Part shown: piece after piece, positions 16,579 to 33,980 of the stretch
How positions within the stretch are numbered: the stretch's first letter is position 1
How the letters are laid out: each line of letters starts with the position of its first letter
Origin: Dehalococcoidia bacterium
GTDB lineage: Bacteria; Chloroflexota; Dehalococcoidia; GIF9; UBA5629
NCBI GenBank assembly: GCA_050011565.1
Contig: JBEKIW010000001.1
Location: 256,001 to 320,000, forward strand
DNA: 64,000 nucleotides
Direction of reading: 5' to 3'
Position numbers and translations under genes: made by a program
Notes under the pieces: generated by a model
Told to the model about the DNA's origin: nothing
The model's input: the letters and a program-made list of their open reading frames with translations, nothing else
Databases searched by the model: none

Positions 16579-19500
16579 TTATCTCCTCAAAGCAATTAGC
16601 AGGGCTACTATCAGCATAATTATGGCTGTAACGCCGACGATAAACCACCAGTTAGTATTGGTCGGTTGGGAAACCTTGAGAATTTCAAACTCGCCGCTAA
16701 GGCCGGCTACTTCCACCTGATGTTTCCCAGCCGCATAGCCGGCAGTGGTGAAGTTCACTGTTTGGCTTGTCCCGGCGGCAGCGGTAACTTGCTTTGTAGA
16801 TGTTATTACCCCATCCACTTTCAACTGAAGACTATAATCTCCGCTCTTTTCCCCTGTGTTGGTCACCTTAATGCTAACTGTAACCTCCTGGTTGGGCTGA
16901 GCATGAGACGGGTTAACAGTCAGGTTACTCACCTCAAATTCAGCCGGTTTAGGTTCCGCCAACCTGGCTAGGACGGCGACAGGTGAGAAGTGGCTTGCCA
17001 GACCTTGCGCCTTGCCGAGTTCAGCCACGACGCCTGGCACCGGTGCCAATGCCTGCCAGCCTTGAGCCGCGTCAAAGTTGGCGATGAACACCTCCGTCGC
17101 ATTGGTGGGCAGCTTTTTAGGGTCGTACGTCAAAGTCAACGTGGCCGGTGGCAATATGGTGACGGGAGACGGTACTGTGGCGTACGAGGTAGGATAGGCG
17201 CTAATCTCGTATACCGGACCGACTATTGTGGTGTTCTCGGGAGCTGGTGGTGGGGCGGATGACTCACGGAATCTAAGCAGCAGCGGTACTCTATCACCGG
17301 CGAGTACTAATTTGGTGTCTTTATCGAGCTCAAGCACATATTTGCCCGATGCATCTTTGGCAATACAAGTTTCACAAAGTACGCCCTTACCAGTCATACT
17401 GGCCATGGTTGTGGTCCCCTGCATGTCTACCGCCAGTGTTGCCGGGCAGGCGACGAGTGATGCAGGTAGGCCGCCTCCACCACTTCCGCCAATTAGAGGT
17501 TGAGGTGTTGGTAGTTGGACGGATAAAGTCATACTGTCTATGCTAGTGCAGCCTTTGCTGTCAGTGACTGTTACAGTATATGTAGTATTGGTGTTCGGTG
17601 AGGCAGTCGGATTGGCGGATGCAGGATTGTTCAGATCGGTAGCGGGCACCCAACTATAGGTGTAGGGTGGTATGCCACCGGAAGCTGTTGGACTGCCGCC
17701 TATTACGGTCGAGCTGCCGGAAATTATTGTAAGGTCGGGGCCGGCATTAACGATTGGTCTGGTGTTTATGGTAACGGTCTTGTTATTACTGCTGGAGCAG
17801 CCTTTGGCGTTTGTGTAGCTGTAAGTGACGATATATGGTCCTGGTAGCAGACCTGTTGGGTTGAAATCAGAGCCGGAGACGCCGGTTCCGCTCCAGGTAC
17901 CTCCTGATGGGGAAGCACCTATCAGTGCTATAGGGTCACCTCCTTCACAGACATCCTGGTTAGGGCCGGCATCAACCGGCGTGGCGCAGGCATAACCGAC
18001 AGAGTATTTGCCGGTAGAACTCTTGCCGCTGAACCACATTTTATAAGGACAGGTATCACCGCCGAAGTTTGCGGCATCGTATAATACCCATGGTGTATAG
18101 GTTCTATCGTTCCTCCACGGCATGCCGTCGTCTTTATAAAAAATAGGGTTGCCAGGGTGCTTAGTCCAGTTTATGCCATCTGTCGACGTAGCATAGCCTA
18201 TGCCGTGATTAGTTTCCACACCGCCGCCGTACCACATCTGCCAGTTACCTGAAAGGTTTAGCACGCTGCAATATCCGACGCCAGTATTATCCCAATCTAA
18301 TGCGGTTCCCGGGCTCAGAACAGGGTTATTGACATATCTTTTCCAGTGTGTCCCATCGGCGGAATAGGCGAGACCGATGGCCTCGTTAGTGCCGTCGGTT
18401 CCCATATAATAGATAACATATTTGTTGTTCCAGATGTTGATGTCGTCGGGGAAGCCGCTTGAATTGTAGATTAAATCGCAGGGGCCATAAGAGCCAGTAT
18501 TCCAGTCAGGCCAGGAGTTGGTGACTAATGGATAAGTACCATCTTGAGTAAGAGCTTGGTCATTTGTCCAGTTGACTCCGTCGGTAGATTCCGCATATCT
18601 CAGAGCGTTAATACTGTAGAGATATGCCGTATCCTCGTACCACATCTTATAGAAAATTCCGTTGCCAAAGCCGTCAGGTCGGTATTTTACCAGTGGATGA
18701 TTTGCGCCGGTCACTAATCCAAATACGGGGTTTGGTCCAGCGGTCCAGTTGATGCCATCAGCGGATTCGGCATAACCTATTTGGCGCGTGCCTGTTCCGT
18801 CGTCCGAGCCGAACCACATCTTATAATAAGCAGTGTTACCATGCCCTGAAAACTGATTAGCGTCATATATTACTTTGGGGTAATAAGCCATAGCGCCACC
18901 GCCGGGCAGCCCCTGGCCGAATACCGGATTATTGCCGTACTCTACCCAGTCGCAGGGTGTGGGGGTAGGGGCAACTGTCAGGTTAGCCATCCCAAGTTTC
19001 CACTGTATCCAGTTTGAACTATCTAGGTTTGGATTGTCTGAGCCGAGGAACCATATCTGGTAATTGCTCCCTGTCTTGACCACCGAGGGCATCCATACGC
19101 TTTGGCTTCTCCATGCCACCCCGTCAGATGTTGTAAATAACGTTTGACTACGTGTCCAGTTTATGCCGTCGGTAGATGTAGCGTAGCCTATCCCGTTCAA
19201 GGCTTGGTATGTCGTCTCTTTTCCGCCTGAGTAGAACGCTTCCCAGTCTGTCGGGCTGTTCTTTATGACCTTGAACCATCCTATATGGTCGCAGTCAAAG
19301 TCGCTAGTGACCAGCGTTCCTGCAAATACCGGCGTGGCATAACCTGCCGCGGTCGGGTCGTAGCCTGTCCAGTTGTAGCCGTCACTGGAAAAGGCCATGA
19401 CTACGAGTTCCTTTCCGCCGTATGCTCCAAGCTCCCACTGGACGTTGGCATATATCCTGAATGTCCAGTCCGTACCCGTATTGGATGCTCCGGGGGTATA

Positions 19501-20031
19501 GACGACATCGGCTATACCATAGGTTACTCCCGTGGCAGCACTATATACTGGGGGTCCGAATTGGGTAACGGGTATGTGGTTAAACCAGTTTATTCCGTCC
19601 GGTGATTCAGCATATCTCCATCCGCTTATGCTATTTTGGTTCAGCCCTGCATACCACATGCGGTAATACATGGTCAATGAGCTTGGGTCGGTACCGCTGT
19701 TGGCTCCGGTGAATCCTGTGCTGTAGTATTTTACATCTGCGTGATACTGCGCATCCGATATTATGGGGTTGCCGCTATATGGAGTCCACGTTATGCCGTC
19801 GGGTGACTGGGCGAGATTAATCGAGGCAAAATTATTTCCGGCATAATATAGTTTATAGTTTACGTTGTCCTTAATGACATAGGCTTGATCCGGGATGAGT
19901 GTGGAGAATACAGGTGATGGGCTTTCATTGATGGTGAAGGTAACCGAGGACGCTATTGCCGGTGCTGCCATCAAGCTAAAGCTCACCCCCAGCACCATGG
20001 CAAACAAAACATTAAAGATCTTCTTTTTCAT
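16579..20031 (-). CDS. Large secreted, C-terminally anchored protein with two five-bladed beta-propeller (GH32/43/130-like) regions, Ig/PKD-like repeats, Gly linker, shared anchor module, CARDB-like domain and TM
   Basis: Signal peptide; many YAxSxDGINW Asp-box-like repeats; VDAGP/VNAGPD Ig repeats; C-terminal NWW-TM-RR. Confidence 0.8.
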   Translation of the reverse strand: MKKKIFNVLFAMVLGVSFSLMAAPAIASSVTFTINESPSPVFSTLIPDQAYVIKDNVNYKLYYAGNNFASINLAQSPDGITWTPYSGNPIISDAQYHADVKYYSTGFTGANSGTDPSSLTMYYRMWYAGLNQNSISGWRYAESPDGINWFNHIPVTQFGPPVYSAATGVTYGIADVVYTPGASNTGTDWTFRIYANVQWELGAYGGKELVVMAFSSDGYNWTGYDPTAAGYATPVFAGTLVTSDFDCDHIGWFKVIKNSPTDWEAFYSGGKETTYQALNGIGYATSTDGINWTRSQTLFTTSDGVAWRSQSVWMPSVVKTGSNYQIWFLGSDNPNLDSSNWIQWKLGMANLTVAPTPTPCDWVEYGNNPVFGQGLPGGGAMAYYPKVIYDANQFSGHGNTAYYKMWFGSDDGTGTRQIGYAESADGINWTAGPNPVFGLVTGANHPLVKYRPDGFGNGIFYKMWYEDTAYLYSINALRYAESTDGVNWTNDQALTQDGTYPLVTNSWPDWNTGSYGPCDLIYNSSGFPDDINIWNNKYVIYYMGTDGTNEAIGLAYSADGTHWKRYVNNPVLSPGTALDWDNTGVGYCSVLNLSGNWQMWYGGGVETNHGIGYATSTDGINWTKHPGNPIFYKDDGMPWRNDRTYTPWVLYDAANFGGDTCPYKMWFSGKSSTGKYSVGYACATPVDAGPNQDVCEGGDPIALIGASPSGGTWSGTGVSGSDFNPTGLLPGPYIVTYSYTNAKGCSSSNNKTVTINTRPIVNAGPDLTIISGSSTVIGGSPTASGGIPPYTYSWVPATDLNNPASANPTASPNTNTTYTVTVTDSKGCTSIDSMTLSVQLPTPQPLIGGSGGGGLPASLVACPATLAVDMQGTTTMASMTGKGVLCETCIAKDASGKYVLELDKDTKLVLAGDRVPLLLRFRESSAPPPAPENTTIVGPVYEISAYPTSYATVPSPVTILPPATLTLTYDPKKLPTNATEVFIANFDAAQGWQALAPVPGVVAELGKAQGLASHFSPVAVLARLAEPKPAEFEVSNLTVNPSHAQPNQEVTVSIKVTNTGEKSGDYSLQLKVDGVITSTKQVTAAAGTSQTVNFTTAGYAAGKHQVEVAGLSGEFEILKVSQPTNTNWWFIVGVTAIIMLIVALLIALRR

Positions 20032-20095
20032 CCTGAAATCTCCGTCTCTTTGATTTCGGCAAAAGCCATTTATACCTTTTTCCCTTTTTCTGAAT

Positions 20096-20184
20096 AAAAA
20101 AACCGACTCACCTTTGGGTCGGTTTCACTATTAGCTCGGCACAGGTCAAGTGACCAAATTTCGACTGGTGCTTCATCGCCCCCC
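20096..20184 (-). ncRNA. c-di-GMP-II-like riboswitch copy 1 with overlapping intrinsic terminator
   Basis: Minus strand reads GGGGCGAUGAAGCAC...UUUGGUCACUU...GUGCCGAGCUAAUAGUGAAACCGACCC, then AACCGAC/GUCGGUU-U-run; matches the remembered c-di-GMP-II pattern (kink-turn, GUCAC/GUGA pseudoknot). Confidence 0.85.
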
Positions 20185-20225
20185 AATTCGGATATTCTAA
20201 ATTAGCTATCTTATCTAGCGGCTGC

Positions 20226-20254
20226 ATAGTCTCATACACTGCCGGCACTGTCAA
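20226..20254 (-). promoter_or_regulatory. Sigma70-type promoter TTGACA-17-TGnGACTAT
   Basis: Perfect -35 and 17-bp spacer; same layout at 24637, 28184 and 32746. Confidence 0.65.
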
Positions 20255-20382
20255 GTATCTTAACCTATCAGGACTTCACCATAAGTAGTACCTTTTTCCT
20301 ATAAACTCTGGTACCTTTGGGTGATGTGGCGGGATAGGCCATGCGACAGCGAGGCTTTAGCCTCGCCCGGACATGCTTCAAT

Positions 20383-21831
20383 TTAGCTTCGGCAGCTTTC
20401 AGTAGATTTATCAGTGGGTATGGCTGCAGATGCAGGTGCCGTCTTTTTGCGGTCTTTAAACCATCTCCAGCCCAAGATCGACCATATGGCTAGCACCAGG
20501 ACTGTAATTCCACCTATAAGCCACCAGTTGACTACAGATGGCACGGATGCTTTGATTACCTCAAATTCACCAACAAGACCGGCAACTTCTACCTGATGTT
20601 TGCCGGCAGTGTCACCGGTGGTGGTGAAATTCACTACTTGACTTTTCCCAGCGGCAACGGTTACCTGTGTGGTTGATTTCACTGCGCCATCGATTTTTAG
20701 CTCCAGACTATAATCTCCGTTTTTCCCACCGGTATTAGCCACGTTAACGCTAACTGTAATTTCCTGGTTTAGCTGAGTCTGGGTTGGGCTGACGGTCAGG
20801 TTGCTCACCTCAAATTTAGCTGGCGCTGCCTCTTCGAACTTGGCTAAGACTGCGAAAAGGGAGAAGTGGTTTAACAGGCCGTGTGCTTTACCGATTTCGG
20901 CGACGGCACCAGGTACTGGTGTCAGCGGCAGCCAGCCTTTTGTTGAGTCGTAGTCGTCGATGAACACCTCCGTAGTCTTTTCAGGTAATTTACTGGGGTC
21001 ATAACTCAAAATCAATCTGGCTGATGGCGATATGGCTATGGGCGATGGTGTCGTCTCGGAGGCTGAGGCATAAGCTGCGAACTCGTAGACCGGGCCTACT
21101 ATCATGGTATTTTCATCAGTTGGCAGTGAGTTGGATGCGATTTTGACTTTCAGTAGCAACGGTACTATATTGCCGGCAAGCATTACCTTGGTATCTTTAT
21201 CGAGTTCAAGTGTATTTTTACCAGAACTATCCTTGGCCAGGCACGCCTCACAGAGTACGCCGTCCTTAGTCATACTGGCGGTGGTTATGTTGCCCTGCAC
21301 GTCTGCGGTAAGTGTTAACGGGCAAGCATAGAATGATGCCGATAAGCCACCTGCGCTGCTACCCTGGCCACCACCGCCACCTCCTCCCCCTCCTGAGTAA
21401 CACAATGTTGTTCCCTGAGGGGTGTTGGAAAGCGGTGTCCACGTCCCAGTGGCGTCAGCCGCCTTGATAGCAAAGTAGTACGTGGTACATGGATTTAGCC
21501 CAATGACTAGGAGTGTCTCAGGGGAGCCAGGCGGTTGGGGTGTTGGTGGAGTTGCCAGTTGGATGGCTGCCTGCCACTCAGCCTCAGTAGTGATAGGAGA
21601 TAGAGAGTAGCGAATATCGTATTGAGTCGCCGGTCCCCAGCCGGGGGTAAGCTGTGGTGAATTCCAGGTCAAGGTCAGGCTGGTGTAGGTAGGGTCACCC
21701 ACCGCCAGGGTAATAGTATTACCGCCGACGGTGAAGCTGCCGGTTATGGAATTATCGGCGTAAGCCTGTGCCGGCGCGAGGCACAACAGCAGGCTCAGTA
21801 ATATAATATATTTCAGTATGGATTTGTTCAT
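20383..21831 (-). CDS. Secreted Fn3-domain protein with shared anchor module, CARDB-like domain and C-terminal TM
   Basis: Signal peptide ending AYA; Fn3 pattern (LTLTW...YDIRYS...GLNPCTTYYFAIKA); poly-Gly linker; NWW-TM-basic tail. Confidence 0.8.
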   Translation of the reverse strand: MNKSILKYIILLSLLLCLAPAQAYADNSITGSFTVGGNTITLAVGDPTYTSLTLTWNSPQLTPGWGPATQYDIRYSLSPITTEAEWQAAIQLATPPTPQPPGSPETLLVIGLNPCTTYYFAIKAADATGTWTPLSNTPQGTTLCYSGGGGGGGGGQGSSAGGLSASFYACPLTLTADVQGNITTASMTKDGVLCEACLAKDSSGKNTLELDKDTKVMLAGNIVPLLLKVKIASNSLPTDENTMIVGPVYEFAAYASASETTPSPIAISPSARLILSYDPSKLPEKTTEVFIDDYDSTKGWLPLTPVPGAVAEIGKAHGLLNHFSLFAVLAKFEEAAPAKFEVSNLTVSPTQTQLNQEITVSVNVANTGGKNGDYSLELKIDGAVKSTTQVTVAAGKSQVVNFTTTGDTAGKHQVEVAGLVGEFEVIKASVPSVVNWWLIGGITVLVLAIWSILGWRWFKDRKKTAPASAAIPTDKSTESCRS

Positions 21832-21843
21832 ATATGCCCACAG

Positions 21844-22983
21844 TTAGTAGTATGTCCTTCTCCGCATCATCAGTATGATGATTATCAGCACCAGTATCAC
21901 CACCCCGCCACCTATAGCCCCGATGAGAAGCCAGTTAATGTTACCGGCAGTCGCTGAAGACCCGCCCGTGCCCAGCTCCAGCTTTTCTTCTTTGCTGGAG
22001 ACATAGGGTTTACCACCAATATCAAGCTCGAGCTTAAAAGTATAGGTTGTCTTCTGCCAGCCTCCGGCTGGAATGTAATTGTAGCTTAATCCGGCCCTGC
22101 CTTTTTCTAGCGGGGCTAACGTGGCTAGCGTGGTCTCATCCAAAGGAGCGCCGCCTTCTGTTACCCTCAGTATTACTTTAGCTTCAGGGAAGGCCTCAAG
22201 CAGATTGTTTACCGTATAGACTACCTGAGCAAAAGCCAGCTCGTTGGTTTTGGTATTGTAATTAGGAACGATGCCGAAACCTTCGAAGTAAACCGTCTTG
22301 ACTTCCAATGTGATTTTTTTGGTCTCGTTGGCAGCCACGCTGAAGCTTTTATCAGCTAATTTGTTGCCGCCAACATAGGCTTCAGCCAGATAGTTACCCG
22401 GCGCTACTTTCATCTTGAGGTTTCCCGTCTCAGAATAGCCAACACTGAGATTTTGGTTGCTGGCTTGCTTATACAATTTGACCATGGCTGGTATAGCCAC
22501 GCCGTCGGGGGTGACAGAAGTCACCTCGACCGAGCCGGCTTCACCGGTGACGGTTAGCTTGGCGGTTTGCCCGGCAGCCCCCAAAAGTTTTATGCCCTCA
22601 CCTTCCTTGTAGGCTTCGGCAGTGACCTTGAGTGTATACTGACCCGGGATGGCAGCATCGCTCACATTAACGCCTATGGTCACCCTTTTCTGCTCACCAG
22701 CCTTGAGCGGGAAATCATTTTCCGAAAGCACCAGCTCTACACCGGCGGGAGTTTCCGTGGCTAATCTGATGTTGAAGTCCTCAGTGCCGTTGTTGAAGAC
22801 AGCCACATAGACGTCGGGGGCACTGAGGCTAGTACCCTGGGGTATTTCGAAATCCTGGCGGTAGAAGCTGCCTGACATCGCCAGCCCACCGGCATTTGCT
22901 GGCGGTGGTAAAAGCAGGCTGGCCATCAACAGGAGACTGAGGAGTGCAAGCCACCCAACCCCATGCTGTTTTATTGAAAGCAT
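21844..22983 (-). CDS. Secreted Ig-fold, C-terminally anchored protein (NEW3/DUF916-like; candidate assembly chaperone)
   Basis: Signal peptide from the ATG at 22983; VFNNG...LKAGEQKRVTIGVNV..AIPGQYTLKV pattern; NW-TM-RRR end. Confidence 0.65.
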   Translation of the reverse strand: MLSIKQHGVGWLALLSLLLMASLLLPPPANAGGLAMSGSFYRQDFEIPQGTSLSAPDVYVAVFNNGTEDFNIRLATETPAGVELVLSENDFPLKAGEQKRVTIGVNVSDAAIPGQYTLKVTAEAYKEGEGIKLLGAAGQTAKLTVTGEAGSVEVTSVTPDGVAIPAMVKLYKQASNQNLSVGYSETGNLKMKVAPGNYLAEAYVGGNKLADKSFSVAANETKKITLEVKTVYFEGFGIVPNYNTKTNELAFAQVVYTVNNLLEAFPEAKVILRVTEGGAPLDETTLATLAPLEKGRAGLSYNYIPAGGWQKTTYTFKLELDIGGKPYVSSKEEKLELGTGGSSATAGNINWLLIGAIGGGVVILVLIIIILMMRRRTYY

Positions 22984-23218
22984 ATCATTTCCTTTTCCGA
23001 GCGCATTTACCAGCGTTCCTTTTACAATGTAGACTCGACCCAAAATATCCCCTTAGCCTCGGGGCTCAGCGCTCTATACGCGATGTAGCCTAGAGGCTGC
23101 ATTAATTATAAAGGATAAACACGTCGAAAGTCACGGAGCTAAAGTCTGCTGGCTACGTCTCATGTGTTATTGCTCGTAGCCTGAATCATAGAGTATTATC
23201 CTATAGCTTTGACTTAAG

Positions 23219-23276: not shown

Positions 23277-24302
23277 CTAGCGATTAGTAATCTGGTAGTA
23301 GATGCTGCCGCTGTAAGTATCAGGTGTAATGCCGGATGCACTGAGCGATAGCCACAAGGTGTTGGTGTTGACATCATCGCCGCCTTCGGTGGTGAGGGTT
23401 CCTGTGATGTCTGTATCAGTGTAGCTCGTCTTATTTACGATAACTGCACTACCCAGGGCGTTGATGTCGTTCCCCATAAGGGCAAATTCGCCCGGGTCGG
23501 TGGGTGGATTACCGCCGCTCTCATCAAGGGCTACAGTCTCAGCACTGACGGCACCGGTCCAATTTGTTGACTTGATATTTTCCGCGTAGTTGCCGTTGGC
23601 GATGTAGTTAATCTTTATGTCGGTCTCTGGATTGGCGGCACCAGCGAATAGCAAGCCCAAGTCCACGGGGCCCCAATCTACCAATAGAGGGGGAGTTATA
23701 GTGATTTCACCGTACCAGTTCATTGCCGTATCGCGGTCATACATTTCACCCGTTTGGGCACTCTTATTGGTTACCAGACCCTGAGCATCCCAATTAGCCG
23801 TACCGGTGCTCTCGGTGGCTACCTTACCGGGGGTGAAGGCAAATATCCAGTCGCCGGTTGTGAGTTCCGGATTGGCTGGCGCTGTACACGTACCAAGCAC
23901 CCAGGTGGTGCCGCCGCCGGTGGGATTGATAGTCCAGGTTGTTCCGCTGGCATTCCAGGTTAGTATGGCGCAGGTCTGGGTATTGGGTGTGGTCGGTGCA
24001 ACCGGGTCGTTGCCGGCACTATCATAGAATAGGGTTACCTCGACCGTGTCCAGATTGCTCAGCTTATTGACGGAACCAACCGTTACCTTGACGTAGTATT
24101 CGGTTAATGGGTCCATGGAAAGGGCAGGGTTTAGGCAGGTAATGTCGGTAAAGATTCCTATTGCAGACACGGTTGGGGGTTGGCTTCTGGCACCGAAGCT
24201 TCCTGTGGTTGTTCCTCCTGTATCAGCATAAGCTGCCGGCACCAGCAGCAGCGATAGAACTGCTACTAGGGCGAGTATGGTAGATAATTTCGTTTTAAAC
24301 AT
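23277..24302 (-). CDS. Secreted 341-aa beta-rich protein with no TM anchor (candidate major fibre subunit)
   Basis: Signal peptide ending AYA; Thr/Gly-rich; ends ITPDTYSGSIYYQITNR; homologous to the C-terminal ~290 aa of 24840-28010. Confidence 0.75.
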   Translation of the reverse strand: MFKTKLSTILALVAVLSLLLVPAAYADTGGTTTGSFGARSQPPTVSAIGIFTDITCLNPALSMDPLTEYYVKVTVGSVNKLSNLDTVEVTLFYDSAGNDPVAPTTPNTQTCAILTWNASGTTWTINPTGGGTTWVLGTCTAPANPELTTGDWIFAFTPGKVATESTGTANWDAQGLVTNKSAQTGEMYDRDTAMNWYGEITITPPLLVDWGPVDLGLLFAGAANPETDIKINYIANGNYAENIKSTNWTGAVSAETVALDESGGNPPTDPGEFALMGNDINALGSAVIVNKTSYTDTDITGTLTTEGGDDVNTNTLWLSLSASGITPDTYSGSIYYQITNR

Positions 24303-24500: not shown

Positions 24501-24597
24501 AAAAAGAAACCGACCATTAAAAAACGGGTCGGTTTCACTACTGGCTCCACACAGGTCAAGTGACCACATTGCGACCGGTGCTTCATCGCCCCCCCCC
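24501..24597 (-). ncRNA. c-di-GMP-II-like riboswitch copy 2 with terminator
   Basis: Same aptamer core as copy 1 (GCGAUGAAGCACCGGUC...UGGUCACUUGACCUGUGU...UAGUGAAACCGACCC) followed by GGUCGGUUUCUUUUU. Confidence 0.85.
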
Positions 24598-24636
24598 AAT
24601 CTTACGTTCTACTTAGTTATCGTATCTTACGGCTAC

Positions 24637-24665
24637 ATAATCTCATACGGCTTTGTCAATGTCAA
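24637..24665 (-). promoter_or_regulatory. Sigma70-type promoter TTGACA-17-TGnGATTAT
   Basis: Conserved with the other three riboswitch leaders. Confidence 0.65.
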
Positions 24666-24839
24666 GTATCTTAACCTATCAGGACTTCACCATAGGCAGT
24701 ACTTTTTTCCCATAAGGTTTAGTACTTTTGTAGGGTTGGCAGCAGACAATGCAATTCGATGTGATTTGATCTCGCCCAAAATGCTCATATGGTCTAAAAA
24801 GGTTGCTTCCACAATGTAATCACTTAATAGTAACTAAGA

Positions 24840-27800
24840 CTAGCGTTCGGCAATCTGGTAGTAGATATTGCCGCCATAAATTACGGGAGCAATGCCTACC
24901 TCACTGAGCGATAGCCATAGACTATTGTTGGTGATAGTAACGCCGGCTTCGGTGGTAAGGCCTCGAGTGTCATTTATGTGGTTATAGCTACTGGTGACAG
25001 TGATTGCACTACTTGGCTCGTTGATGTCATTTGCCATGAGGGCAAATTCGCCTGGATTGGTAGGTGGGTCACCTGTAGAGAGAGTTACGGTCTCACTGCC
25101 GCCGACCCAGTCTTCTGACCTGATGTCTTCATAGTAGTTGCCGTTGGCAATGTATTTAATACTTACGGCCTCTGGATTCGGGGTATCCTCGAATTTAAGA
25201 CCCAGCGGCACTTCACCCCAGTCGACTGAAGGGGTATTAACGGTAATTTCACCATACCAGTTCATGTCCTTGTTGCGGACATATCTTTCGCCTGTTTGGG
25301 TGGGGTTACGGATTGCCTTACCCTGGGCATCCCAATCTGCTACCCCGATATTCTCGGTGGCTACTTTTCCTGGTTTGAAGGCGAATATCCAGGCACCGCT
25401 GGTGGTATTCAATGGCGGCTGGAAGCACCCGCCGGTCTCTATTGTCCATGACGTAGGGGCACCGGAGGAGATAGTCCAGGTAGGTGTAGAGCCGACACCG
25501 CAGGTCAGTATGGCACAGGTCTGAGTATTGCCACTCGTCGGTGCCGTCATATCGTCGGCGCCGGTTTCATTATAGAAAAGAGTTACCTGGACTGTTTGGA
25601 GGTGTTCCAGGTTATTAGATAGAGTGACCGACAGCCTGGCGTAGTATGTGAATTGTGGAGTCATGGAATCGGCAATTGTGGTGCAGCCAGGGTCTTCATA
25701 GATTTCTAATTCAGTAACAGTTGGGATGCTAGCCGGGTTGACGGTGACGTCTACACTAGCGTTGTTCTGGCAGCCATAGGAGTTGGTGACGGTTAAGATA
25801 TATTCTCCTGCCATTGATATAGTGGCGTTGGGTATGGAAGGTGACTGCGCCAGGCTGGAGAAGCCATTTGGCCCGGTCCAGGAATATGAACTCATTCCGT
25901 TAGGTCCGCCGGTTAACAGAATGGTATTGCCCTCCTCGACGGGCGAGTTGCCCGAGGCTGAGGCTGTAGGCCTGGGATTGACGATGACATTGACTGAGTC
26001 CGAGGCGGTGCAGTGGTATTCGTAGGTTAGCTCGTAGATTACGCCTCCGGGATTGGCGGTCACGGTGCCCCCAGTCGTTTGTTCATTGGCGGCTCTTATC
26101 TCCAGTATGTTTGTGCCTATCTGAAGGGTAGGCGAATAAGACTCAACTGATTGCCAGCCTGATGAAGCGACCCAATTATCGGTTAAATCGCTGTCTTCCC
26201 ATGGTATGCCATTATAGTCTGTGAGCTGGGCTAAGCCGAGAAAGATTCCATTCATATAGGCTTCGTAGCCGTTATCACAGGTGATGCGAAGTGTGGCGTT
26301 TGTTGGAGCGGTAGCAATGTCGAAGCTGCGCTCGAAGTAGACTACGTCGCCTGCCTCAGGATGGACTACCTGATAGCTTTCCCATATCCACTGGGCAGTA
26401 TTATTGGGATAACCGAAGTTGTAGTCCAGGCCTGACCACCAGTTGGGGTGCACCCAGGCTAAAACGGCATTATGTGGTGTAGCACCATTGCCTCGGGTGA
26501 CCATAGTATTATTGTCGCTGACAACCTTGTTGCTGCACATAGCGCTATCGGTGACGGTGACAGCCACAGTGCCGGCGCCGCTGGCGATATATTCATTGCC
26601 TTGATATGAGCCTGGTGCAGTGCTGACGCTCCAGTCGTAGGTATAAGGCGGGGCGCCGCCAGCGGCATTGGCGGTTAGTGTAGTACTGCCGCCTTCGCAG
26701 AAGGCTGGGTTGCCGTTGATAGATACGGCGAGAGATGATGGCGTGGTGACGGTGACCTGGGTGCTGTTAGTGCACTGGCAGCCGCCGACAGTGACGGTTA
26801 TGCCGATGGTGACCGGGCCAGTTGAGCCAGCTCTCCAGGTAATGGAGCTGGTGCCCTGTCCTGCGGTTATGGTGCCGTTGGTTATCGACCAGGTATAGGT
26901 GGCCCCGCCTCCGGCATCTGGGACTGAGGCGGTATTACCAGTGGAGTTGGCGTAGACTGAAGAAGGTGCGGTGATGGTGCAGTCGATTGTTATAACGGTG
27001 ACCTGGGTGCTGTTAGTACACTGGCAGCCGCTGGCGGTGATGGTGATACCCAGGGTGACGTTGCCGCTGGGGCCGGCGGTATAGGTGATGGAGTTAGTAG
27101 TTCCGCCTGCGGTGATGGTGCCGTTGGATATAGTCCAGGTATAGGTAGCGCCGGTCACGGCTGTGACCGAGGCATGGTTACCGGTGGAGTTAGCGCAGAC
27201 TGAAGCTGGAGTTGGGGTGATGGTGCAGTCAGGGTTTGGTTTGATGGCGAGGGTAACGGCCCGCCAACGTTCACTACCTGTGCCGGTGAGGTCGAACGCT
27301 GCTGTACCTGTGGCTCCAATGGCCGATTGAGTTATGTCAGCGGCACCACCGCTGCTGGTACCCGACCCGCTATAGCTCTCGATGCTGAAGCGGCCTGTAT
27401 GCCCTGATGGATATCCGGCACCGGCTCCCAGATCGCCATCGGCCCCGTAGATACGGAGCACCAGTGTGTCAGCGACTGTGGTGGTGACACTTGGTGCTGT
27501 GGGGGTGTTTGAGTTACCGGTAGCGGAACCAGATACATTGATGGGATTCCCGGTGCAAAAGTTGCTATAGCGGAGAATGGCACCGACTGCCTGTTCGCTG
27601 CCGGACCACGTGATTGTGTAGGAGCTCGGCTCGGATGCTCCTGCGACCTTGTAAAACACGCCGAGTCTAATTTCATTAGACCCAGTCCCGCTGCTCCCCT
27701 CGTTGATTAGTGTCCACCCCGAAGGCGTACTGATGGCTCCGGTGCCATCCTTCGACAGAATGGCGATGAGCAGATCGCCTTGTGCAGTACCAGTCGGCTT

Positions 27801-28010
27801 GTTGATGGTCAGGCTGGTTCCGTTGGAACCGAGAGTGGCTGTAGCAAGGCTTTGGTAAGTTGGCGGGCCGGCGGCCTGAACGGTCGATACTGGCACAAGC
27901 GCTGCCATAAAGGCACTAACAATCAGTACCGCAGTAAAGATGCTCCTTGCAGCTATCACAAAGATTCTACTGCGCATGGTTATCTGTTTTGTGTTTATTA
28001 ACCTCTTCAT
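24840..28010 (-). CDS. Large secreted multidomain adhesin-like protein: N-terminal beta domain, tandem Ig/PKD-like repeats, galactose-binding-like domain and a C-terminal domain shared with the 341-aa protein
   Basis: Signal peptide; two ~82-aa DCTIT...GCQCTNSTQVTV repeats; AQWIW...CDNGYEAYMNG...NPGG lectin-like fold; ends IYGGNIYYQIAER; no TM anchor. Confidence 0.78.
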   Translation of the reverse strand: MKRLINTKQITMRSRIFVIAARSIFTAVLIVSAFMAALVPVSTVQAAGPPTYQSLATATLGSNGTSLTINKPTGTAQGDLLIAILSKDGTGAISTPSGWTLINEGSSGTGSNEIRLGVFYKVAGASEPSSYTITWSGSEQAVGAILRYSNFCTGNPINVSGSATGNSNTPTAPSVTTTVADTLVLRIYGADGDLGAGAGYPSGHTGRFSIESYSGSGTSSGGAADITQSAIGATGTAAFDLTGTGSERWRAVTLAIKPNPDCTITPTPASVCANSTGNHASVTAVTGATYTWTISNGTITAGGTTNSITYTAGPSGNVTLGITITASGCQCTNSTQVTVITIDCTITAPSSVYANSTGNTASVPDAGGGATYTWSITNGTITAGQGTSSITWRAGSTGPVTIGITVTVGGCQCTNSTQVTVTTPSSLAVSINGNPAFCEGGSTTLTANAAGGAPPYTYDWSVSTAPGSYQGNEYIASGAGTVAVTVTDSAMCSNKVVSDNNTMVTRGNGATPHNAVLAWVHPNWWSGLDYNFGYPNNTAQWIWESYQVVHPEAGDVVYFERSFDIATAPTNATLRITCDNGYEAYMNGIFLGLAQLTDYNGIPWEDSDLTDNWVASSGWQSVESYSPTLQIGTNILEIRAANEQTTGGTVTANPGGVIYELTYEYHCTASDSVNVIVNPRPTASASGNSPVEEGNTILLTGGPNGMSSYSWTGPNGFSSLAQSPSIPNATISMAGEYILTVTNSYGCQNNASVDVTVNPASIPTVTELEIYEDPGCTTIADSMTPQFTYYARLSVTLSNNLEHLQTVQVTLFYNETGADDMTAPTSGNTQTCAILTCGVGSTPTWTISSGAPTSWTIETGGCFQPPLNTTSGAWIFAFKPGKVATENIGVADWDAQGKAIRNPTQTGERYVRNKDMNWYGEITVNTPSVDWGEVPLGLKFEDTPNPEAVSIKYIANGNYYEDIRSEDWVGGSETVTLSTGDPPTNPGEFALMANDINEPSSAITVTSSYNHINDTRGLTTEAGVTITNNSLWLSLSEVGIAPVIYGGNIYYQIAER

Positions 28011-28031: not shown

Positions 28032-28119
28032 AAAAACCGACCGCAAAAATGGGTCGGTTTCACTATTGGCTCGGCGCCGGCCAAGTGACCAAATTTCGGC
28101 TGGTGCTTCATCGCCCCCC
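28032..28119 (-). ncRNA. c-di-GMP-II-like riboswitch copy 3 with terminator
   Basis: Same core with a compensatory stem change (GCC/GGC instead of GUC/GAC); terminator ACCGACC/GGUCGGUUUUU. Confidence 0.85.
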
Positions 28120-28183
28120 ATTTAATATTTTTTTCGGCTGGCATATTGCCATGATTTCTGTTTACATTCTATTCAGTAACAGA

Positions 28184-28212
28184 ATAATCGCATATAGGGG
28201 AGGCACTGTCAA
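28184..28212 (-). promoter_or_regulatory. Sigma70-type promoter TTGACA-17-TGnGATTAT
   Basis: Conserved with the other leaders. Confidence 0.65.
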
Positions 28213-28300
28213 GTATCTTATCCTATCAGGACTTTACTATAAACAGGACTATGGTACTATCAGGGTTGGTACCTTTGGGTGATATAGTGGGGTGAATGAG

Positions 28301-28403: not shown

Positions 28404-28631
28404 TGTTTTGGTCATTAGTTGTTTGTGATTTGGAGCTTGGGATTTAGTGCTTGATAAGCTGAGCTTGTACATGAAGCATCTGCTCTCATCTGCCACCAAG
28501 CACACGTGTTTAACTGTCTACAGTACTATTTTGCCACGGGATTCGGTACCTTTGCGGGATTGTGTGATGAGATTGGATAGGGTAGAGTTAGTATAGGACG
28601 ACAACAGACAACTTTAGGGAGGTTTATTAAC

Positions 28632-28859
28632 ATGGCACGTCGTAATGGGAATGGTCTGCTGACCGCAAGACAGGTAGCTCGGCTTCTCAACGTGCATGTT
28701 AACACGGTGCGGCGATGGAATGACCGGGGAATACTAAAGGCGTACCGCATAGGTCCACGAGGCGACCGGAGATTCAACAAGGCAGATATCGATATGTTTC
28801 TTGCCGGAAACGGTCAGCCCGACAATGAGACCGAGGCTGCCCTGGTACTTGTTAGTTGA
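28632..28859 (+). CDS. Small excisionase/BldC-like (HTH_17, MerR-like winged HTH) DNA-binding protein
   Basis: LLTARQVARLLNVHVNTVRRW...G.LKAYRIGPRGDRRF; GGAGG RBS. Confidence 0.85.
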   Translation: MARRNGNGLLTARQVARLLNVHVNTVRRWNDRGILKAYRIGPRGDRRFNKADIDMFLAGNGQPDNETEAALVLVS

Positions 28860-28932
28860 AGACACGAATTAGCGGAATATCTTTTTGCTTCACGCTGCGT
28901 TTAGGTACCAGATTGTAGCCAGCTCGGATTAA

Positions 28933-31900
28933 TTAGCTAAACCGCCTCCGTCTTATGAGCATCCATATAGCCAGCGCCAGTATTATGGCAGCGATAATGC
29001 CGCCGATAGGCCACCAGTTAATAGATGGCGGCCCGGCTACCACAAATTCGCCGGTCAGGCTGGCTATCTCTATCTGATATTTGCCGATAGCGTCTTCAGC
29101 TACAGTGAAACTCACTATCTGGTTTGCTCCAGCCCCAAGCGTTATCTGTTTGGTTGATTCGACCACACCATTGACTTTCAGTTCCACTGTATAATCTCCG
29201 CTGGTGCCGCCTGTGTTGGACACATTAACGCTGATGGTAACTTGCTGTGCGGGTTGGGTCTGAGTTGGGTTGATGTTTAATTTGCTTACTTCAAAGTTAG
29301 GTGCCACCTTTGCCAGCTTGGCCAGTAAAGTATCGGGTACGAAGTAGTTCAGCGTGCCGCGGGCTTGACCGACCTCGGCGACAACTCCCTCCGAGCCCAT
29401 GGCTAGCCAACCCTGGTTGGGATTGGGGTAGTAGGAGAGTAGCACCTCCGAGACATTCTTGGGCAGCTCATTGGGGTCATAAGCTGAAGACATAGTAAAT
29501 AGCGGAGAAATGGTAATCGGAGATGGAGTCAGTCCATTCAGGGAAGCATAAGCATTGATCTCGTAGGTAGGTCCGATTGTTTTTGCATTAACTGCTGGTG
29601 GTGACGAGCCAACCGTTGTTATTTTGATGAGTTGTGGTACCTTATTGCCTTCCAGAGTTAGTTTTGTTCCCTCTTTGGCTTCCCAGCTATTATGTTTTGG
29701 CGGGTCGAAAGCCAGACAATTTTCACAAAGGACTCCGTCTGAGGTCATTGTGGCTGTGGTTGTTTGGCCCAGCATATTTACCGTGAGCGTCAGTGGGCAG
29801 GCAGATGCTGTGGCTGTAGGGGCTGCCGCGGCAAGAACACTTGCGGGTATGCCACCTATACCGCCACCTCCGCCGCCACCACTGATGGGAGGGGGCATTG
29901 GCAAGTACATGTTTACGGAAACAGAAGCAGTGGCGCAGGTGTAGCATGTGGGAGCCTTGGCGGATATCGTGGCTGGGGACGAGTTGGTGCTGGAGGTGAA
30001 GACAGCAGTGGCGATGCCGCTGGTGGTGGTCTTGGGGCTTTCGATGGAACCTGTGTCCGTAGTAAAGATGATTTGGGTGCCATCAGGAATATGCCCTTGG
30101 GCTGAAGTATCCTGCCCATCAGAGTTCTTGGTCATGTCCGCGGTGATGACGGAGGTTGATACACCGTCTGCCGGGATGCTCGGCGGGTTGGCGCTCAGGT
30201 TGAGCACCAGCCAGGGGTCGTACGTGACGTTGTCTGACACCTTATCGCCGCTGCCCGGGCCGACGGCTCCAGGACCGTCATTGCAGCCCCACCAGTTATT
30301 GGTGGCGTCCAGAGTACCGATGCCAGCGTTGTTAGCGCCGTAAACCGTGTTGCAGACGATGTTGTTGAAGCTGGCGCTGACATTGGCAGCGTTAACTTCG
30401 GATTCAACCAGGATGCCATTACCATTGCTAGATAACATATTGCCCATAAGGGTGCTACCGGCGGCCACAGAGCCGAATAAGCGAATACCGTTTACCCAAG
30501 AAGAGACGGTATTGTTAGTGATGGTGGCCGCGATGCTTCCAGCTGCGTCGTTTGCAGAAGTATCGCCGATTATGATGCCGTCAGCCGATGTTGACCCACT
30601 TGTGAGCTGGTTATTATCTATGGTGATTGCTAGGGATGCACCGGCGACGTATGTTTGAGCCATAATCGCCGCTTCCTCCCACCCGGGGATGTCCTTTACG
30701 CCACTCACGGTATTGCCCACAAAGGAAACAGTGTATGAACCCGCCGTATAGTACTGAGCCCCCATAGGCTCTCGTCCCACCGTTCCGCCAGTCACTGTGT
30801 TAGCCTGCGCTGCAACGCTGCTATCCTGGGCTATGATCCCGAATTGGCAGTCAGTTATGATGTTGTTGTTGGCGGTGGAACCACCGCTGTTGTTAAAAAG
30901 GATGCCCGCGGCCCACCATGTTTCCGGGACATATTCAAGGTTGCTAATCGTATTATAATTCACCGTCGCTACAGCGGCCCAGCCGATATCAACGCCGTTC
31001 TGAACCTCGTCCCCGACAGGTAGAGGACCTCGCCCAGTAATCGTGTTGTGATGTATGTTGACGGTGAGCGTATTTCCCTTGGCGTTTATGCCCTCCTTGT
31101 CGAAGTTCGTGATTGTTGAACCTTTGACTTCCACAGAGACGGTGTTCGTTGCCGCTGAGAGATACATGCCATAGCCACGGTCTGAAGTAGAATCCAAAGC
31201 TCCTCCTCCAACCACACTGACAGTATCCATTGTGCCGCCGGTCTCACGGTAGAAGATACCGGCAAGGTAATCGGCTCCGGTCGGCATGGTGGTAACACTG
31301 CTTTCATCGACTTTCAGATTCTTCACCGTTACCGCGCTGCCATCGGAAACGTTGGCTACAATGATGCCGGCAATCTGCTTCGTGCCGCCACCCGCGGACA
31401 AGCCGCTGAACACCTGCGTGAGTATGGCAGCCGAAGAAGGCTTTACAATGGTAGTATCACCAGCACCCTGCAACGTCAGGCTCTTGTTTATCACTACCTG
31501 CTCATCATACGTCCCCGCCGCCACATTCACCGTGCTGCCAGCCACGGCATCGACGCCATCCTGGATAGTGGCGAAGGCATCATAGCCGAAGACGTGCCCA
31601 TCAACTATCTCACCCTCATATTTACCTGCCCAGTCATCGTCTACCCACACTTCCGTGGGAGTTCCCTGAACAGCCGCCACACCACCCCATGTCACAGTAC
31701 CGTCGCCAGCAGCATATTCCCAGTTCCCGACGAATACGAATGGATTGACCGCAGATTTATTTACGGCGGCTTCAGGTACATCCTGATATTGCGGCGCATC
31801 AAACATCTGGAACCACGTCATAGCCGCATTATTCAAAGGGTTGGTGGTCTTATGCACACGCTGAAACGCAGTAACCCGGAAACCATTGCCCGGCCCCAAG

Positions 31901-32466
31901 TCATGGAATATCATCTTAAAGTCAAATGTGTCGTACTCCGCATCGCCTGTGCAATGATATCCGCCATTCGCAAGTTGTGACCCTGCGTTCTGATACGGTG
32001 TGTTCCAGCCAAAACCCGGTCCCTGGAACTGGTTTGTGGCATCTGTATACCATTGCTGACTCAAATAATACAGAGCCTGATTCCATCCAGCCCACATCTG
32101 GTTCATCCATGCGGAGCTCCTGGGATTGATACACGGTCCAAGAGCTGTCTGGTTAGTGATTCCAAGTTGAAAACCGGTCTTAAAGGTAGGTGCTGGCAAA
32201 GGAGGCGTATAAGGGCAGGACCAGTTGAGCGTACGACTGTCCTTCATGTCCACGTTCATCGCGTACAGGACCAAGTCGCCAGCAGTTAAGTTAAACGTTG
32301 CTGGAAACACTGTCCCTGAACCACCACACCACTCCCCTACCCCTGTCGTTATCGATCCTCCAGGAAACACAAAGGAACCGTCTGCCTTCACCGGGCTTGC
32401 CGGCGCTAGGCTGAAGCTTAGCGACAGCACCAAGGCAAATAAAATGCTAAAAATCTTCTTTTTCAC
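28933..32466 (-). CDS. Large secreted, C-terminally anchored protein with right-handed beta-helix, invasin/Big_1-like domain, shared anchor module, CARDB-like domain and TM
   Basis: GTG start with MKKKIF signal peptide; TIQDGVDAV...VNVAAGTYDEQVVINKSLTLQG beta-helix start; DATNNWWG; SANPPSIPADGVSTSVITA; NWW-TM-RRR. Confidence 0.8.
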   Translation of the reverse strand: MKKKIFSILFALVLSLSFSLAPASPVKADGSFVFPGGSITTGVGEWCGGSGTVFPATFNLTAGDLVLYAMNVDMKDSRTLNWSCPYTPPLPAPTFKTGFQLGITNQTALGPCINPRSSAWMNQMWAGWNQALYYLSQQWYTDATNQFQGPGFGWNTPYQNAGSQLANGGYHCTGDAEYDTFDFKMIFHDLGPGNGFRVTAFQRVHKTTNPLNNAAMTWFQMFDAPQYQDVPEAAVNKSAVNPFVFVGNWEYAAGDGTVTWGGVAAVQGTPTEVWVDDDWAGKYEGEIVDGHVFGYDAFATIQDGVDAVAGSTVNVAAGTYDEQVVINKSLTLQGAGDTTIVKPSSAAILTQVFSGLSAGGGTKQIAGIIVANVSDGSAVTVKNLKVDESSVTTMPTGADYLAGIFYRETGGTMDTVSVVGGGALDSTSDRGYGMYLSAATNTVSVEVKGSTITNFDKEGINAKGNTLTVNIHHNTITGRGPLPVGDEVQNGVDIGWAAVATVNYNTISNLEYVPETWWAAGILFNNSGGSTANNNIITDCQFGIIAQDSSVAAQANTVTGGTVGREPMGAQYYTAGSYTVSFVGNTVSGVKDIPGWEEAAIMAQTYVAGASLAITIDNNQLTSGSTSADGIIIGDTSANDAAGSIAATITNNTVSSWVNGIRLFGSVAAGSTLMGNMLSSNGNGILVESEVNAANVSASFNNIVCNTVYGANNAGIGTLDATNNWWGCNDGPGAVGPGSGDKVSDNVTYDPWLVLNLSANPPSIPADGVSTSVITADMTKNSDGQDTSAQGHIPDGTQIIFTTDTGSIESPKTTTSGIATAVFTSSTNSSPATISAKAPTCYTCATASVSVNMYLPMPPPISGGGGGGGIGGIPASVLAAAAPTATASACPLTLTVNMLGQTTTATMTSDGVLCENCLAFDPPKHNSWEAKEGTKLTLEGNKVPQLIKITTVGSSPPAVNAKTIGPTYEINAYASLNGLTPSPITISPLFTMSSAYDPNELPKNVSEVLLSYYPNPNQGWLAMGSEGVVAEVGQARGTLNYFVPDTLLAKLAKVAPNFEVSKLNINPTQTQPAQQVTISVNVSNTGGTSGDYTVELKVNGVVESTKQITLGAGANQIVSFTVAEDAIGKYQIEIASLTGEFVVAGPPSINWWPIGGIIAAIILALAIWMLIRRRRFS

Positions 32467-32530
32467 TCTGAAACCTCCGGCTATTTGATTTCGATAAAAG
32501 CCACTTATACCTTTTCCCCTTTTTCCGAAT

Positions 32531-32618
32531 AAAAAAACCGACCGCTAAAATGGGTCGGTTTCACTACTGGCTCGGCATCAGCCAAGTGACCAAATTGCGG
32601 CTGGTGCTTCATCGCCCC
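32531..32618 (-). ncRNA. c-di-GMP-II-like riboswitch copy 4 with terminator
   Basis: Same core (GGGGCGAUGAAGCACCAGCC...UUUGGUCACUUGGCUGAUGCCGAGCCAGUAGUGAAACCGACCC) followed by GGUCGGUUUUUUU. Confidence 0.85.
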
Positions 32619-32745
32619 ACCCTCCTACGTTGTAGTGTTTATAAATTATTGTTAGTTAATCACCTACCTGTCGGCTCGTTTCGGAAACTGCTTTGAGCCG
32701 TGTTGGAATTCATCCAAACAGAATCCCCAGTGTATGTTTGAGTAC

Positions 32746-32774
32746 ATATTCGCATAGTATCAATTGTTTGTCAA
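32746..32774 (-). promoter_or_regulatory. Sigma70-type promoter TTGACA-17-TGnGAATAT
   Basis: Same geometry as the other three leaders. Confidence 0.55.
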
Positions 32775-32963
32775 TAGGATTTACATGATTTTTTCATTAA
32801 AACTTCACCGAATCTTCACATTTCTGGCCATTTGGGGCAGATTTATCGCAGGGAATCACCCGTTTAGGAATTAGTACTAGTTTACAGCGTGACTAAACTA
32901 CGCGTCAAAACGTGACCTACGGGTGATTCGGAAAAAGACCAGACCGTATACACTAGTTTTGAT

Positions 32964-33980
32964 ATGGCCAGCGTTAAGTTTACATTGTTATTGCTTGTCC
33001 TCCTTTGCTCCCTGGCAACTTTTGCATTAATGCCGGCTGTGCAAAATATCTCTGACGCATCAGGCACTGTAGCTGTTCTCCCTTCAGAGTTTGAATCTAG
33101 CGCTCATGAATCAGCGGTAATGGCTGCGAATGGTGATTATTCGGGTAGGCAATGGGCTATACCGAAGATTATGGCGCCTCAGGCCTGGGAAGTTACATCA
33201 GGGGCAAACAACGTGGTCATCGCCGTATTGGATACGGGCATCGACAAGCAGCAGGAGGACCTCGTGGGCAAAGTGATAGCCGAAGTGAATTTCACGGACA
33301 GCCTAACGACTGACGATATATATGGCCACGGGACACATATAGCCGGCGTCATCGCCGCATGGGCGGGGAGCGGTGCCGGTGTTGCCGGTTTAGCACCTGA
33401 TTGTCGCTTAATGAACGTCAAAGTAGCTGATGACCAGGGCAGGTTCGATAGTTCGGTGGCAGCCAGGGGCGTTATCTGGGCAGTGGACCACGGCGCCAAT
33501 GTCATAAATATGAGTCTGGTTAGCACCGAGCCATCACCAAGATTAGAGGAAGCAATCAACTATGCCTGGAACCAGGGAGCCGTGGTGATAGCTGCGGCTG
33601 GCAACCTTGTAGGTGACAAGATAGTATATCCGGCCTACTATTCGAATTGTATTGCCGTGGCGGCCACCGACAGTAACGATTGTGTGGCCTCGTGGTCGAG
33701 TCAAGGAGATTGGGTGGATGTGGCTGCTCCCGGCGTAGATATCTATTCTACACTGCCTGATAACAAATATGGTAGCAAGAGCGGCACTTCGATGGCCGCA
33801 GCCCATGTATCCGGATTGGCCGGCCTGCTCTTTGCGTTAGAGAAAGATAGGAATAACGACGGCCTTGTCAATGACGAGGTTAGAGCCGCCATTGAGAATG
33901 GCTGTGACGGACTTACCGGTGCTGTTAAAGGGCGCATTAATGCTTTCCATGCCGTAAGCAACGCATTAACCTCCAATTAG
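32964..33980 (+). CDS. Secreted subtilisin-family (S8) serine protease
   Basis: Catalytic triad motifs VLDTGID, HGTHIAG and SGTSMAAAHV; signal peptide. Confidence 0.93.
   Translation: MASVKFTLLLLVLLCSLATFALMPAVQNISDASGTVAVLPSEFESSAHESAVMAANGDYSGRQWAIPKIMAPQAWEVTSGANNVVIAVLDTGIDKQQEDLVGKVIAEVNFTDSLTTDDIYGHGTHIAGVIAAWAGSGAGVAGLAPDCRLMNVKVADDQGRFDSSVAARGVIWAVDHGANVINMSLVSTEPSPRLEEAINYAWNQGAVVIAAAGNLVGDKIVYPAYYSNCIAVAATDSNDCVASWSSQGDWVDVAAPGVDIYSTLPDNKYGSKSGTSMAAAHVSGLAGLLFALEKDRNNDGLVNDEVRAAIENGCDGLTGAVKGRINAFHAVSNALTSN

Follow-up and report, generated by a model that had tools for sequence, protein, structure and literature searches.

Organization of the locus

We analyzed a 64 kb window of a Dehalococcoidia genome (assembly GCA_050011565.1, contig JBEKIW010000001.1; all window coordinates are positions within this stretch), in which six genes for secreted proteins, all on the minus strand, lie between proB and the CCA gene. 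In reading order they encode F (28933..32466, 1177 amino acids (aa)), E (24840..28010, 1056 aa), D (23277..24302, 341 aa), C (21844..22983, 379 aa), B (20383..21831, 482 aa) and A (16579..20031, 1150 aa). A sequence-only reading of this DNA had proposed that the six, with a helix-turn-helix (HTH) regulator inside the island and a divergent subtilisin at its edge, form an undescribed surface fibre system switched by cyclic di-GMP (c-di-GMP). All six open reading frames (ORFs) and both additional genes were recovered at the positions given there. The functional unit appears to be smaller: D, E, C and B probably constitute a four-gene strand-exchange pilus with a membrane chaperone, likely switched by c-di-GMP, with A and F as separate surface proteins.

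In two genomes of the same family proB lies close to the CCA gene, so that the A-F block is an insertion. The D family is present in 16 of the 401 genomes sampled from the class and in 3 of 401 sampled from the phylum, the host genome being included in both counts. The closest named homologues of C are 77-82% identical, share the proB flank and come from Dehalococcoidales or Dehalococcoidia metagenome-assembled genomes (MAGs). The completeness of the host genome (99.2%) allows negatives to be stated genome-wide: neither a sortase nor an usher (PF00577, for which the same search is positive in an E. coli control) is found in it, which extends to the whole genome an absence previously noted for the window. 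Likewise, no penicillin-binding protein (PBP) transpeptidase of peptidoglycan was detected in the genome, and WxL, DUF916 and TasA (PF12389) gave no match over the cut-off; no signal peptidase is encoded among the genes of the locus.

Donor-like strands and acceptor domains are distributed reciprocally

Protein D has a signal peptide, a candidate donor strand (residues 27-40), an immunoglobulin (Ig) domain (44-194) and a predicted strand-accepting pilin domain (195-341). The mature protein starts GTTTGSF, with G34 and F36 each kept in 97 of 99 alignment rows, and the core of the strand (residues 30-38, GTTTGSFGA; 24189..24215, minus strand) is a conserved motif left unpaired in the monomer model. 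In that model (predicted local distance difference test, pLDDT, 92.7) the stretch 27-43 is unpaired but confident and precedes two beta domains, 44-194 and 198-340, the second of which reaches a pLDDT of 96.9 when modelled alone. An AxA-type site pointing to Sec export lies shortly before the strand in 134 of the 160 D proteins examined, none of which has a lipobox or a twin-arginine motif. The Ig domain is a dispensable spacer, because a 188-aa D paralogue at the related locus L043 (L and G numbers denote loci and genomes) consists of strand and acceptor only.

Protein E (24840..28010, minus strand), the likely tip adhesin, carries both D-type domains behind a variable N-terminal payload with PKD repeats recognized by Pfam, and has no donor strand. 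Its residues 763-1056 are 52% identical to residues 43-341 of D over 303 columns (E 2e-83), which bears out the homology that had been read from the sequence. Neither protein has a C-terminal membrane segment, as had also been stated: the best 19-residue hydropathy in the last 70 residues is 0.84 in D and 1.13 in E, as against 2.0-3.1 in the other four proteins. To examine the family at large, we classed 262 proteins, by a crude division, into 162 short and 75 long forms, with 25 set aside as fragments; the donor motif stands ahead of the domain in 147 of the 162 short forms and in 8 of the 75 long ones, and the D-type domain forms the C-terminal end of 249 of the 262.

A donor profile built from 160 D strands alone (consensus GxTxGxF) was then scored on those 582 ORFs of the genome whose N-terminus has a hydrophobic stretch. 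D ranked first and B second, the strand of B (residues 27-35, NSITGSFTV; 21727..21753, minus strand) scoring 17.1 bits and the next unrelated ORF 10.8; E, F, C and A fell at the 34th, 62nd, 86th and 91st percentiles, respectively. No match to the acceptor domain was found in B. As judged from sequence, then, a donor-like strand is carried by D and B and not by E, and an acceptor domain by D and E and not by B. This is the pattern expected if D is the major subunit, E the tip and B the base, the roles that the sequence-only reading had assigned to them.

A predicted pilin-like fold of the D acceptor domain

D has no sequence match in Pfam, NCBIfam or the PDB, and profiles of D and C against PDB sequences yielded nothing meaningful. 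We recovered 208 homologues of D by one search and 653 representatives by a profile search at E-values up to 0.001; ten distant homologues looked up by name are all "hypothetical protein". Fold searches with whole D were filled by generic Ig matches to its first domain (Z 8-9.5). For the acceptor domain alone the best match was TLP-1b (Z 7.7, root-mean-square deviation (rmsd) 3.6, 129 residues aligned), followed by CsuA/B (Z 7.5, rmsd 3.5, 118 aligned), CooA (Z 6.6) and the pilin domains of FimH and CfaE (Z 6.1-6.6). With pilin domains, D 195-341 aligned from end to end, starting just past their donor strand and ending at the C-terminus; for the chaperone-usher subunits, whose incomplete Ig domain ends in strand F, such alignments gave middling scores (Z 5.3-7.5). 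In Foldseek the ten best rows were all strand-exchange fibre subunits (PapE, PapA, CfaB, TLP-1 and CfaE) with TM-scores of 0.42-0.53. WxL and Pam subunit structures were not among the fold-search matches listed, and D may share those folds.

In the Atlas, the nearest named clusters to D are WxL at 0.75-0.76, which is a lead only. Separately, the Atlas holds D-like clusters (0.96-0.97, TM-score 0.71) and a C-like cluster (0.90), labelled mostly archaeal, with few members that have a record. An Atlas "virus" cluster for D was unsupported, as a viral structure library gave no TM-score above about 0.3.

C is a predicted membrane-anchored chaperone

Protein C (21844..22983, minus strand) has three Ig-like domains followed by a C-terminal transmembrane (TM) helix, in agreement with the membrane anchoring already proposed for C and B. 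An alternative TTG start at 23043 is possible, though the ATG is favoured by the length of the homologues, about 379 aa. C is better conserved than D, and the two are tightly linked: in each of the 25 loci with upstream DNA the gene immediately ahead of C belongs to the D family (the small form in 23), and, starting from D, C is reached within two genes in 12 of 14 genomes, while in the remaining two the contig breaks off. Homologues of D are thus found with their neighbours, and D itself was recognized neither as a complete monomer nor as a known S-layer or enzyme domain.

When C was folded with D lacking its donor strand, the complex scored 0.88, 0.88 and 0.87, and the best of three controls 0.00; the mark applied is reached by 116 of 157 solved pairs and 2 of 215 mismatched ones, counts that are approximate for the alignments used here. 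Contacts are at least 96% the same between runs, and the partner pLDDT is at least 86. In the model, residues 128-140 of C run parallel to the last strand of D, 329-340 (D-C pairs 334-133, 336-135 and 338-137), while C 34-37 is antiparallel to strand A of D (195-200). By this prediction C occupies the groove of the pilin in the manner of pilus chaperones, in keeping with the chaperone role first suggested for it; a parallel chaperone strand is reported for ElrE-ElrD and for chaperone-usher pili in the Elr preprint (10.64898/2026.10.17.759780).

The first domain of C shows a weak likeness to DUF916 (76% and 40% in profile comparisons), and PF06030 matches C under the cut-off (E 0.084) and weakly in 13 of 75 members (best 0.0022). 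PF11797 was not among the matches listed for C, nor was PapD_N, which was also not among the best 25 of 79 families for the C alignment. An invariant N-terminal SGxF in C resembles the donor motif; as a pilin-type donor, this SGSF was rejected, the C-D model placing it on strand A.

B and its counterparts are probable terminators and anchors

Protein B (20383..21831, minus strand) is likely to be a donor-only terminator and membrane anchor, consisting of the donor-like strand, an Fn3 domain, a Gly linker, a module shared with other proteins, CARDB and a TM helix. Its counterparts were chosen by hand as the secreted gene that follows C (in L076 the second gene), which could be done in 24 of the 27 loci from the C alignment, the other three lacking downstream DNA. 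On the donor profile all 24 reach at least the 96.6th percentile and 21 at least the 99th; a C-terminal TM segment is present in 20, and a significant acceptor-domain match in none. In L056, L057, L058 and L072 the motif of D reads GKF and that of B GKF or GRF. The absence of sortase, usher and PBP transpeptidase fits a terminator held by the membrane.

The C-terminal module is common to A, B and F (45-60% identical), and a fourth copy lies elsewhere in the genome, in a 560-aa protein (L091:6017-8636, G000 C7) that adjoins a MEDS-HTH_17 regulator. Two variants of the layout were observed: one terminator (L071:2294-4003) has domains 2-3 of C as its stalk, and in the family of L042 (10240-15825), L048 and L049 C bears long low-complexity C-terminal tails and no B-type gene follows.

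A natural strand swap

The clearest test of the terminator role is a natural one. At the same site (L090:1866-7235) the same-genus genome G304 carries a different cassette, with a single-domain pilin-like protein of 165 aa that starts ATTAAVTVTA, and its anchor starts QTATVTVTA on the C-terminal module of B. The cassette also has two DUF2341 proteins, whose C-terminal parts match the 165-aa protein, beginning at residue 32-35 (E 2e-9 and 4e-9), and a small Ig-like lipoprotein. G266 shows the same pairing of pilin and anchor strands. The strand of the anchor thus appears to change to match the pilin family, as would be expected of a terminator that fills the last groove.

This second family comprises single-domain proteins of 165-190 aa with no Pfam match (404 homologues; 10 of the 401 class genomes, L093-L104) and occupies the same proB-subtilase-CCA site, where no Rfam match was found. 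It is distantly related to the acceptor domain of D (75%, E 2.5e-5) and has no relationship to the D Ig domain. For its adjacent one-Ig membrane or lipoprotein partner, DUF916 was the best of seven profiles (48%). We rejected a direct relationship by sequence of C to the G304 lipoprotein (20% between profiles).

Four c-di-GMP riboswitches precede the genes

The four paralogous leaders noted in the sequence are c-di-GMP-II riboswitches, which score 57-63 bits against a gathering score of 53.5 bits for Rfam RF01786 with no other Rfam match across the 64 kb. The four, which are on the minus strand, precede F (32544..32628, 57.9 bits; terminator hairpin 32535-32561, -12.7 kcal/mol), E (28043..28127, 63 bits; hairpin 28034-28060, -14.3 kcal/mol, 6 U in 8), D-C-B (24518..24602, 60.7 bits; hairpin 24507-24535, -12.3 kcal/mol, 7 U in 8) and A (20108..20192, 57 bits; hairpin 20100-20125, -10.3 kcal/mol). 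In all four leaders the hairpin (-10 to -14 kcal/mol) has 6-7 U in the next 8 bases, and it starts at position 68 of the 85 of the aptamer, whose 3' strand it consumes; ten related leaders fold alike. A simple promoter and terminator scan, which gave no excess over shuffled sequences, missed these terminators, and they were found by folding. Because each riboswitch overlaps a terminator, the four are likely ON switches in which the ligand would block the terminator. This resembles the class II switch Cdi-2-4 of C. difficile, reported to lift termination before the major pilin gene pilA1 (PMC6366702); that switch controls type IV pili, whereas here four copies would govern a strand-exchange cluster and two passengers.

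Four of the five over-cut-off c-di-GMP-II matches of the genome are at this cluster, and five GGDEF genes of the genome pass the cut-off. The remaining riboswitch (L092:1917-5639, G000 C4) overlaps the start of a 1240-aa ORF with DUF11 and a gingipain-like C25 peptidase and no obvious signal peptide. Among 27 D-family loci scanned, just 8 have a riboswitch, some of the 19 negatives being cut near D; one of the 8, in G313, has a tandem pair of class I-GGC riboswitches before D. The proposed c-di-GMP switching is likely at the present locus, with its four probable ON switches; control by this signal is limited to some lineages but was reached with two riboswitch classes.

Upstream of the leaders lies a 26-nt promoter core ending TTGAC (24661..24686, minus strand), with copies at 20250-20275 and 28208-28233; it is conserved in relatives, and a genome-wide search allowing up to 4 mismatches found just these three sites. 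A long upstream block in which GGTAC/AGTAC boxes recur at intervals of about 22 nt is also common to the promoters of A, D and E (20250-20320, 24661-24735 and 28208-28280); it may be an operator, perhaps for the HTH_17 protein described below.

A and F are co-regulated passengers

Both A (16579..20031, minus strand) and F (28933..32466, minus strand) are TM-anchored surface proteins with CARDB, the former with a glycoside-hydrolase-like propeller (PF04041, E 2.4e-7) and the latter with a beta-helix-like region and an invasin D3-like domain. Among relatives A is whole in L053, shortened in L054 and missing in L055, and F is missing at this site in L054 and L055. As pilus subunits they were rejected, having neither donor strand nor acceptor domain. 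Since they lack both elements and vary among relatives, the system comprises four genes and not the six first put forward, and A and F would be separate surface proteins under the same signal.

Two genes on the plus strand were confirmed by Pfam: a putative HTH_17/MerR-type regulator of 75 aa (28632..28859; PF12728, E 5e-13), kept in L053 and L055, and a secreted subtilase (32964..33980; PF00082, E 6.7e-48). The latter appears to be a linked accessory gene: it accompanies 7 of 27 related loci, including cases in which the cluster has a different genomic position, and adjoins the second pilin cassette of G304. Further along, a transposase-like ORF of 278 aa (39112-39948, plus strand) was read from the sequence, where a stretch of lower GC, near 40-42 kb, begins.

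Weighing the pilus against other readings

Several points, in addition to the limited spread of the riboswitches, weigh against a four-gene pilus. The fold of the D acceptor is by itself suggestive only, because no Z-score reaches 8 (all lie in a range that the tool calls common) and the list also contains glycosidase and ASH domains, at 6.6-7.0; nor is any Foldseek E-value below 0.001. Solved chaperone-pilin pairs exist, so that the C-D complex score speaks for likeness and not for binding, and may arise from likeness to those pairs. Covariation is weak. The TM segment is missing in 4 of the 24 genes after C, no B-type gene was seen after C in L042, L043, L048 and L049, and E-type genes are whole in just 19 of 25 loci. 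Finally, because the related genomes are kin, the locus counts are not independent.

Of the other readings, the one that survives best, though we give it only a small chance, is that the same contacts build a short stalk, in which B carries one or a few D topped by E, or else a surface coat, instead of a long fibre. D, C and B share one leader and their copy numbers could be near equal; moreover, Dehalococcoidia need a protein envelope, and the organism has no detectable peptidoglycan transpeptidase. However, D has both donor and acceptor, the mark of a repeating subunit in the Elr, Pam and chaperone-usher systems; it is the gene nearest the riboswitch, and about 290 nt that contain a hairpin-like stretch separate it from C; and a cluster so patchy (16 of 401 class genomes) is unlike a core envelope protein. 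Somewhat less probable still is a role of C as the permanent membrane base holding the last subunit, with D polymerizing without a catalytic chaperone as in TasA and archaeal fibres. The TM anchor of C, its donor-like SGxF and the several loci with C and no B-type gene are in line with this, but the modelled groove is filled by an internal strand of C in the chaperone mode with the N-terminus on strand A, C reaches just the 86th donor percentile, and a separate donor-only anchor follows it in 24 of the 27 loci. That these are unrelated Ig-domain surface proteins under a shared regulator, their pilus likeness a by-product of beta-sandwich folds, is very improbable: the middling fold scores, the lack of Pfam support for any pilus family and the passenger-like A and F would suit it, but not the reciprocal distribution of donors and acceptors, the strand swap seen in G304 and G266, the gene order fixed across classes, or a control-tested complex with the expected register.

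On the preferred reading of a strand-exchange pilus, D would be exported by Sec and C would bind E first. D would then displace C on E, and repeated addition would give a D-D polymer; a pocket near Y330 of D, faced by E129 of C, might stay open for F36 of the incoming D. The strand of B would fill the last groove and its TM helix hold the fibre, whose purpose may be adhesion and whose expression would be turned on through the riboswitches at high c-di-GMP. The locus is hence a candidate adhesion fibre of uncultured Dehalococcoidia tied to c-di-GMP, in a genome where wall transpeptidase, sortase and usher all went undetected, and the natural strand swap bears directly on the terminator model.

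Comparison with known systems

The kind of system is not undescribed, as had been supposed: two 2026 preprints report membrane-chaperone strand-exchange pili, namely the Elr/WxL pilus of Enterococcus and other Bacilli (10.64898/2026.10.17.759780) and the Pam pilus of candidate phyla radiation (CPR) bacteria, whose pilins are reported as CPR-only (PMC13278184). In the accounts they give, such pili are confined to lineages, Bacillota in one and CPR in the other (10.64898/2026.10.17.759780, PMC13278184), and the term "Chloroflex" appears in neither main text, although the supplements may list such loci. The present locus suggests that this route exists in a third phylum as well, with a pilin family unrecognized by the profile libraries searched. 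While the route itself is known, what is new here is the pilin family, its topology of N-terminal donor, spacer Ig and acceptor, the phylum and the membrane terminator; we found no description of the D family or of this layout in the full-text literature searched, which excludes most subscription papers.

We further observed WxL (PF13731) over the cut-off in 12 of 401 Chloroflexota genomes (L106-L119), with 8 of 11 neighbouring genes scanned passing PF06030; these MAG loci fall outside the range of Bacillota given in the Elr preprint (10.64898/2026.10.17.759780). A wider idea, which we hold tentatively and at somewhat less than even confidence, is that usher-less membrane-chaperone strand-exchange pili make up a wide and largely unannotated class in cells that lack an outer membrane, of which Chloroflexota hold three interchangeable versions and archaea may have related clusters. 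If so, the two-domain family, the single-domain family and the true WxL/DUF916 pairs would be versions that fit the same genomic site and the same anchor module through exchange of a nine-residue strand, and the chaperone-usher pathway would be a special case that added the usher.

By the tests run, membership of the WxL, chaperone-usher and TasA families was rejected. Chaperone-usher pili (Csu, CFA/I, P and type 1) share the incomplete Ig pilin domain, the predicted complementation by a chaperone and a tip without donor; unlike them, the present cassette has no usher, a membrane-bound chaperone, a two-domain subunit and a donor-only terminator with its own TM helix. TLP-1 fibrils, the best fold match to the D acceptor at a TM-score of 0.53, likewise have an N-terminal donor strand, but identity is 8-10% and TLP-1 is a single domain of 236 aa with its nearest predicted structures in Flavobacteriales, as its description has it (PMC11494351). 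TasA, archaeal bundling pili and tafi are also strand-exchange fibres of cells without an outer membrane, though there the tip or initiator is reported to donate, which is the opposite polarity (PMC9245690, PMC11821415).

As described in the preprint (10.64898/2026.10.17.759780), Elr shares with the present cassette a small subunit with an N-terminal donor ending in Phe, a large tip with C-terminal acceptor, no donor and a variable payload, a TM-anchored chaperone whose strand is parallel to the last strand, and a donor-only terminator. It differs in that PF13731, PF06030 and PF11797 have no match over the cut-off here (WxL PF13731 is found in 0 of 99 D-family members and nowhere in the genome, and the D profile reaches 17% probability against 12 Chloroflexota WxL proteins), and in that the donor is GxTxGxF as against [S/T]x[G/A]x[V/I]xF, with only the Phe in agreement. 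The extra Ig domain of the subunit, the three-domain chaperone, the riboswitch control and a TM terminator in place of LPxTG and sortase likewise set our cassette apart from Elr in that account (10.64898/2026.10.17.759780).

With Pam, compared here through its published description, our cassette shares a two-domain pilin with a C-terminal truncated Ig (by models and fold searches), a chaperone with a C-terminal TM helix, the lack of usher and sortase, and, in B and PamR, a terminator of N-terminal strand, FnIII and TM helix (PMC13278184). Pam is reported to donate the inter-domain linker and to have a single-domain tip, whereas the donor here lies N-terminal of both domains and the tip is large and payload-bearing (PMC13278184). 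Because tips keep the linker and lose the strand, and terminators copy the strand, we infer that the donor in our cassette is the N-terminal strand and not the linker. Taken together, the proposed four-gene pilus cassette is well supported and would work like Elr and Pam while belonging to neither by the tests run: Pam is closest in its parts, and Elr in donor position and tip design.

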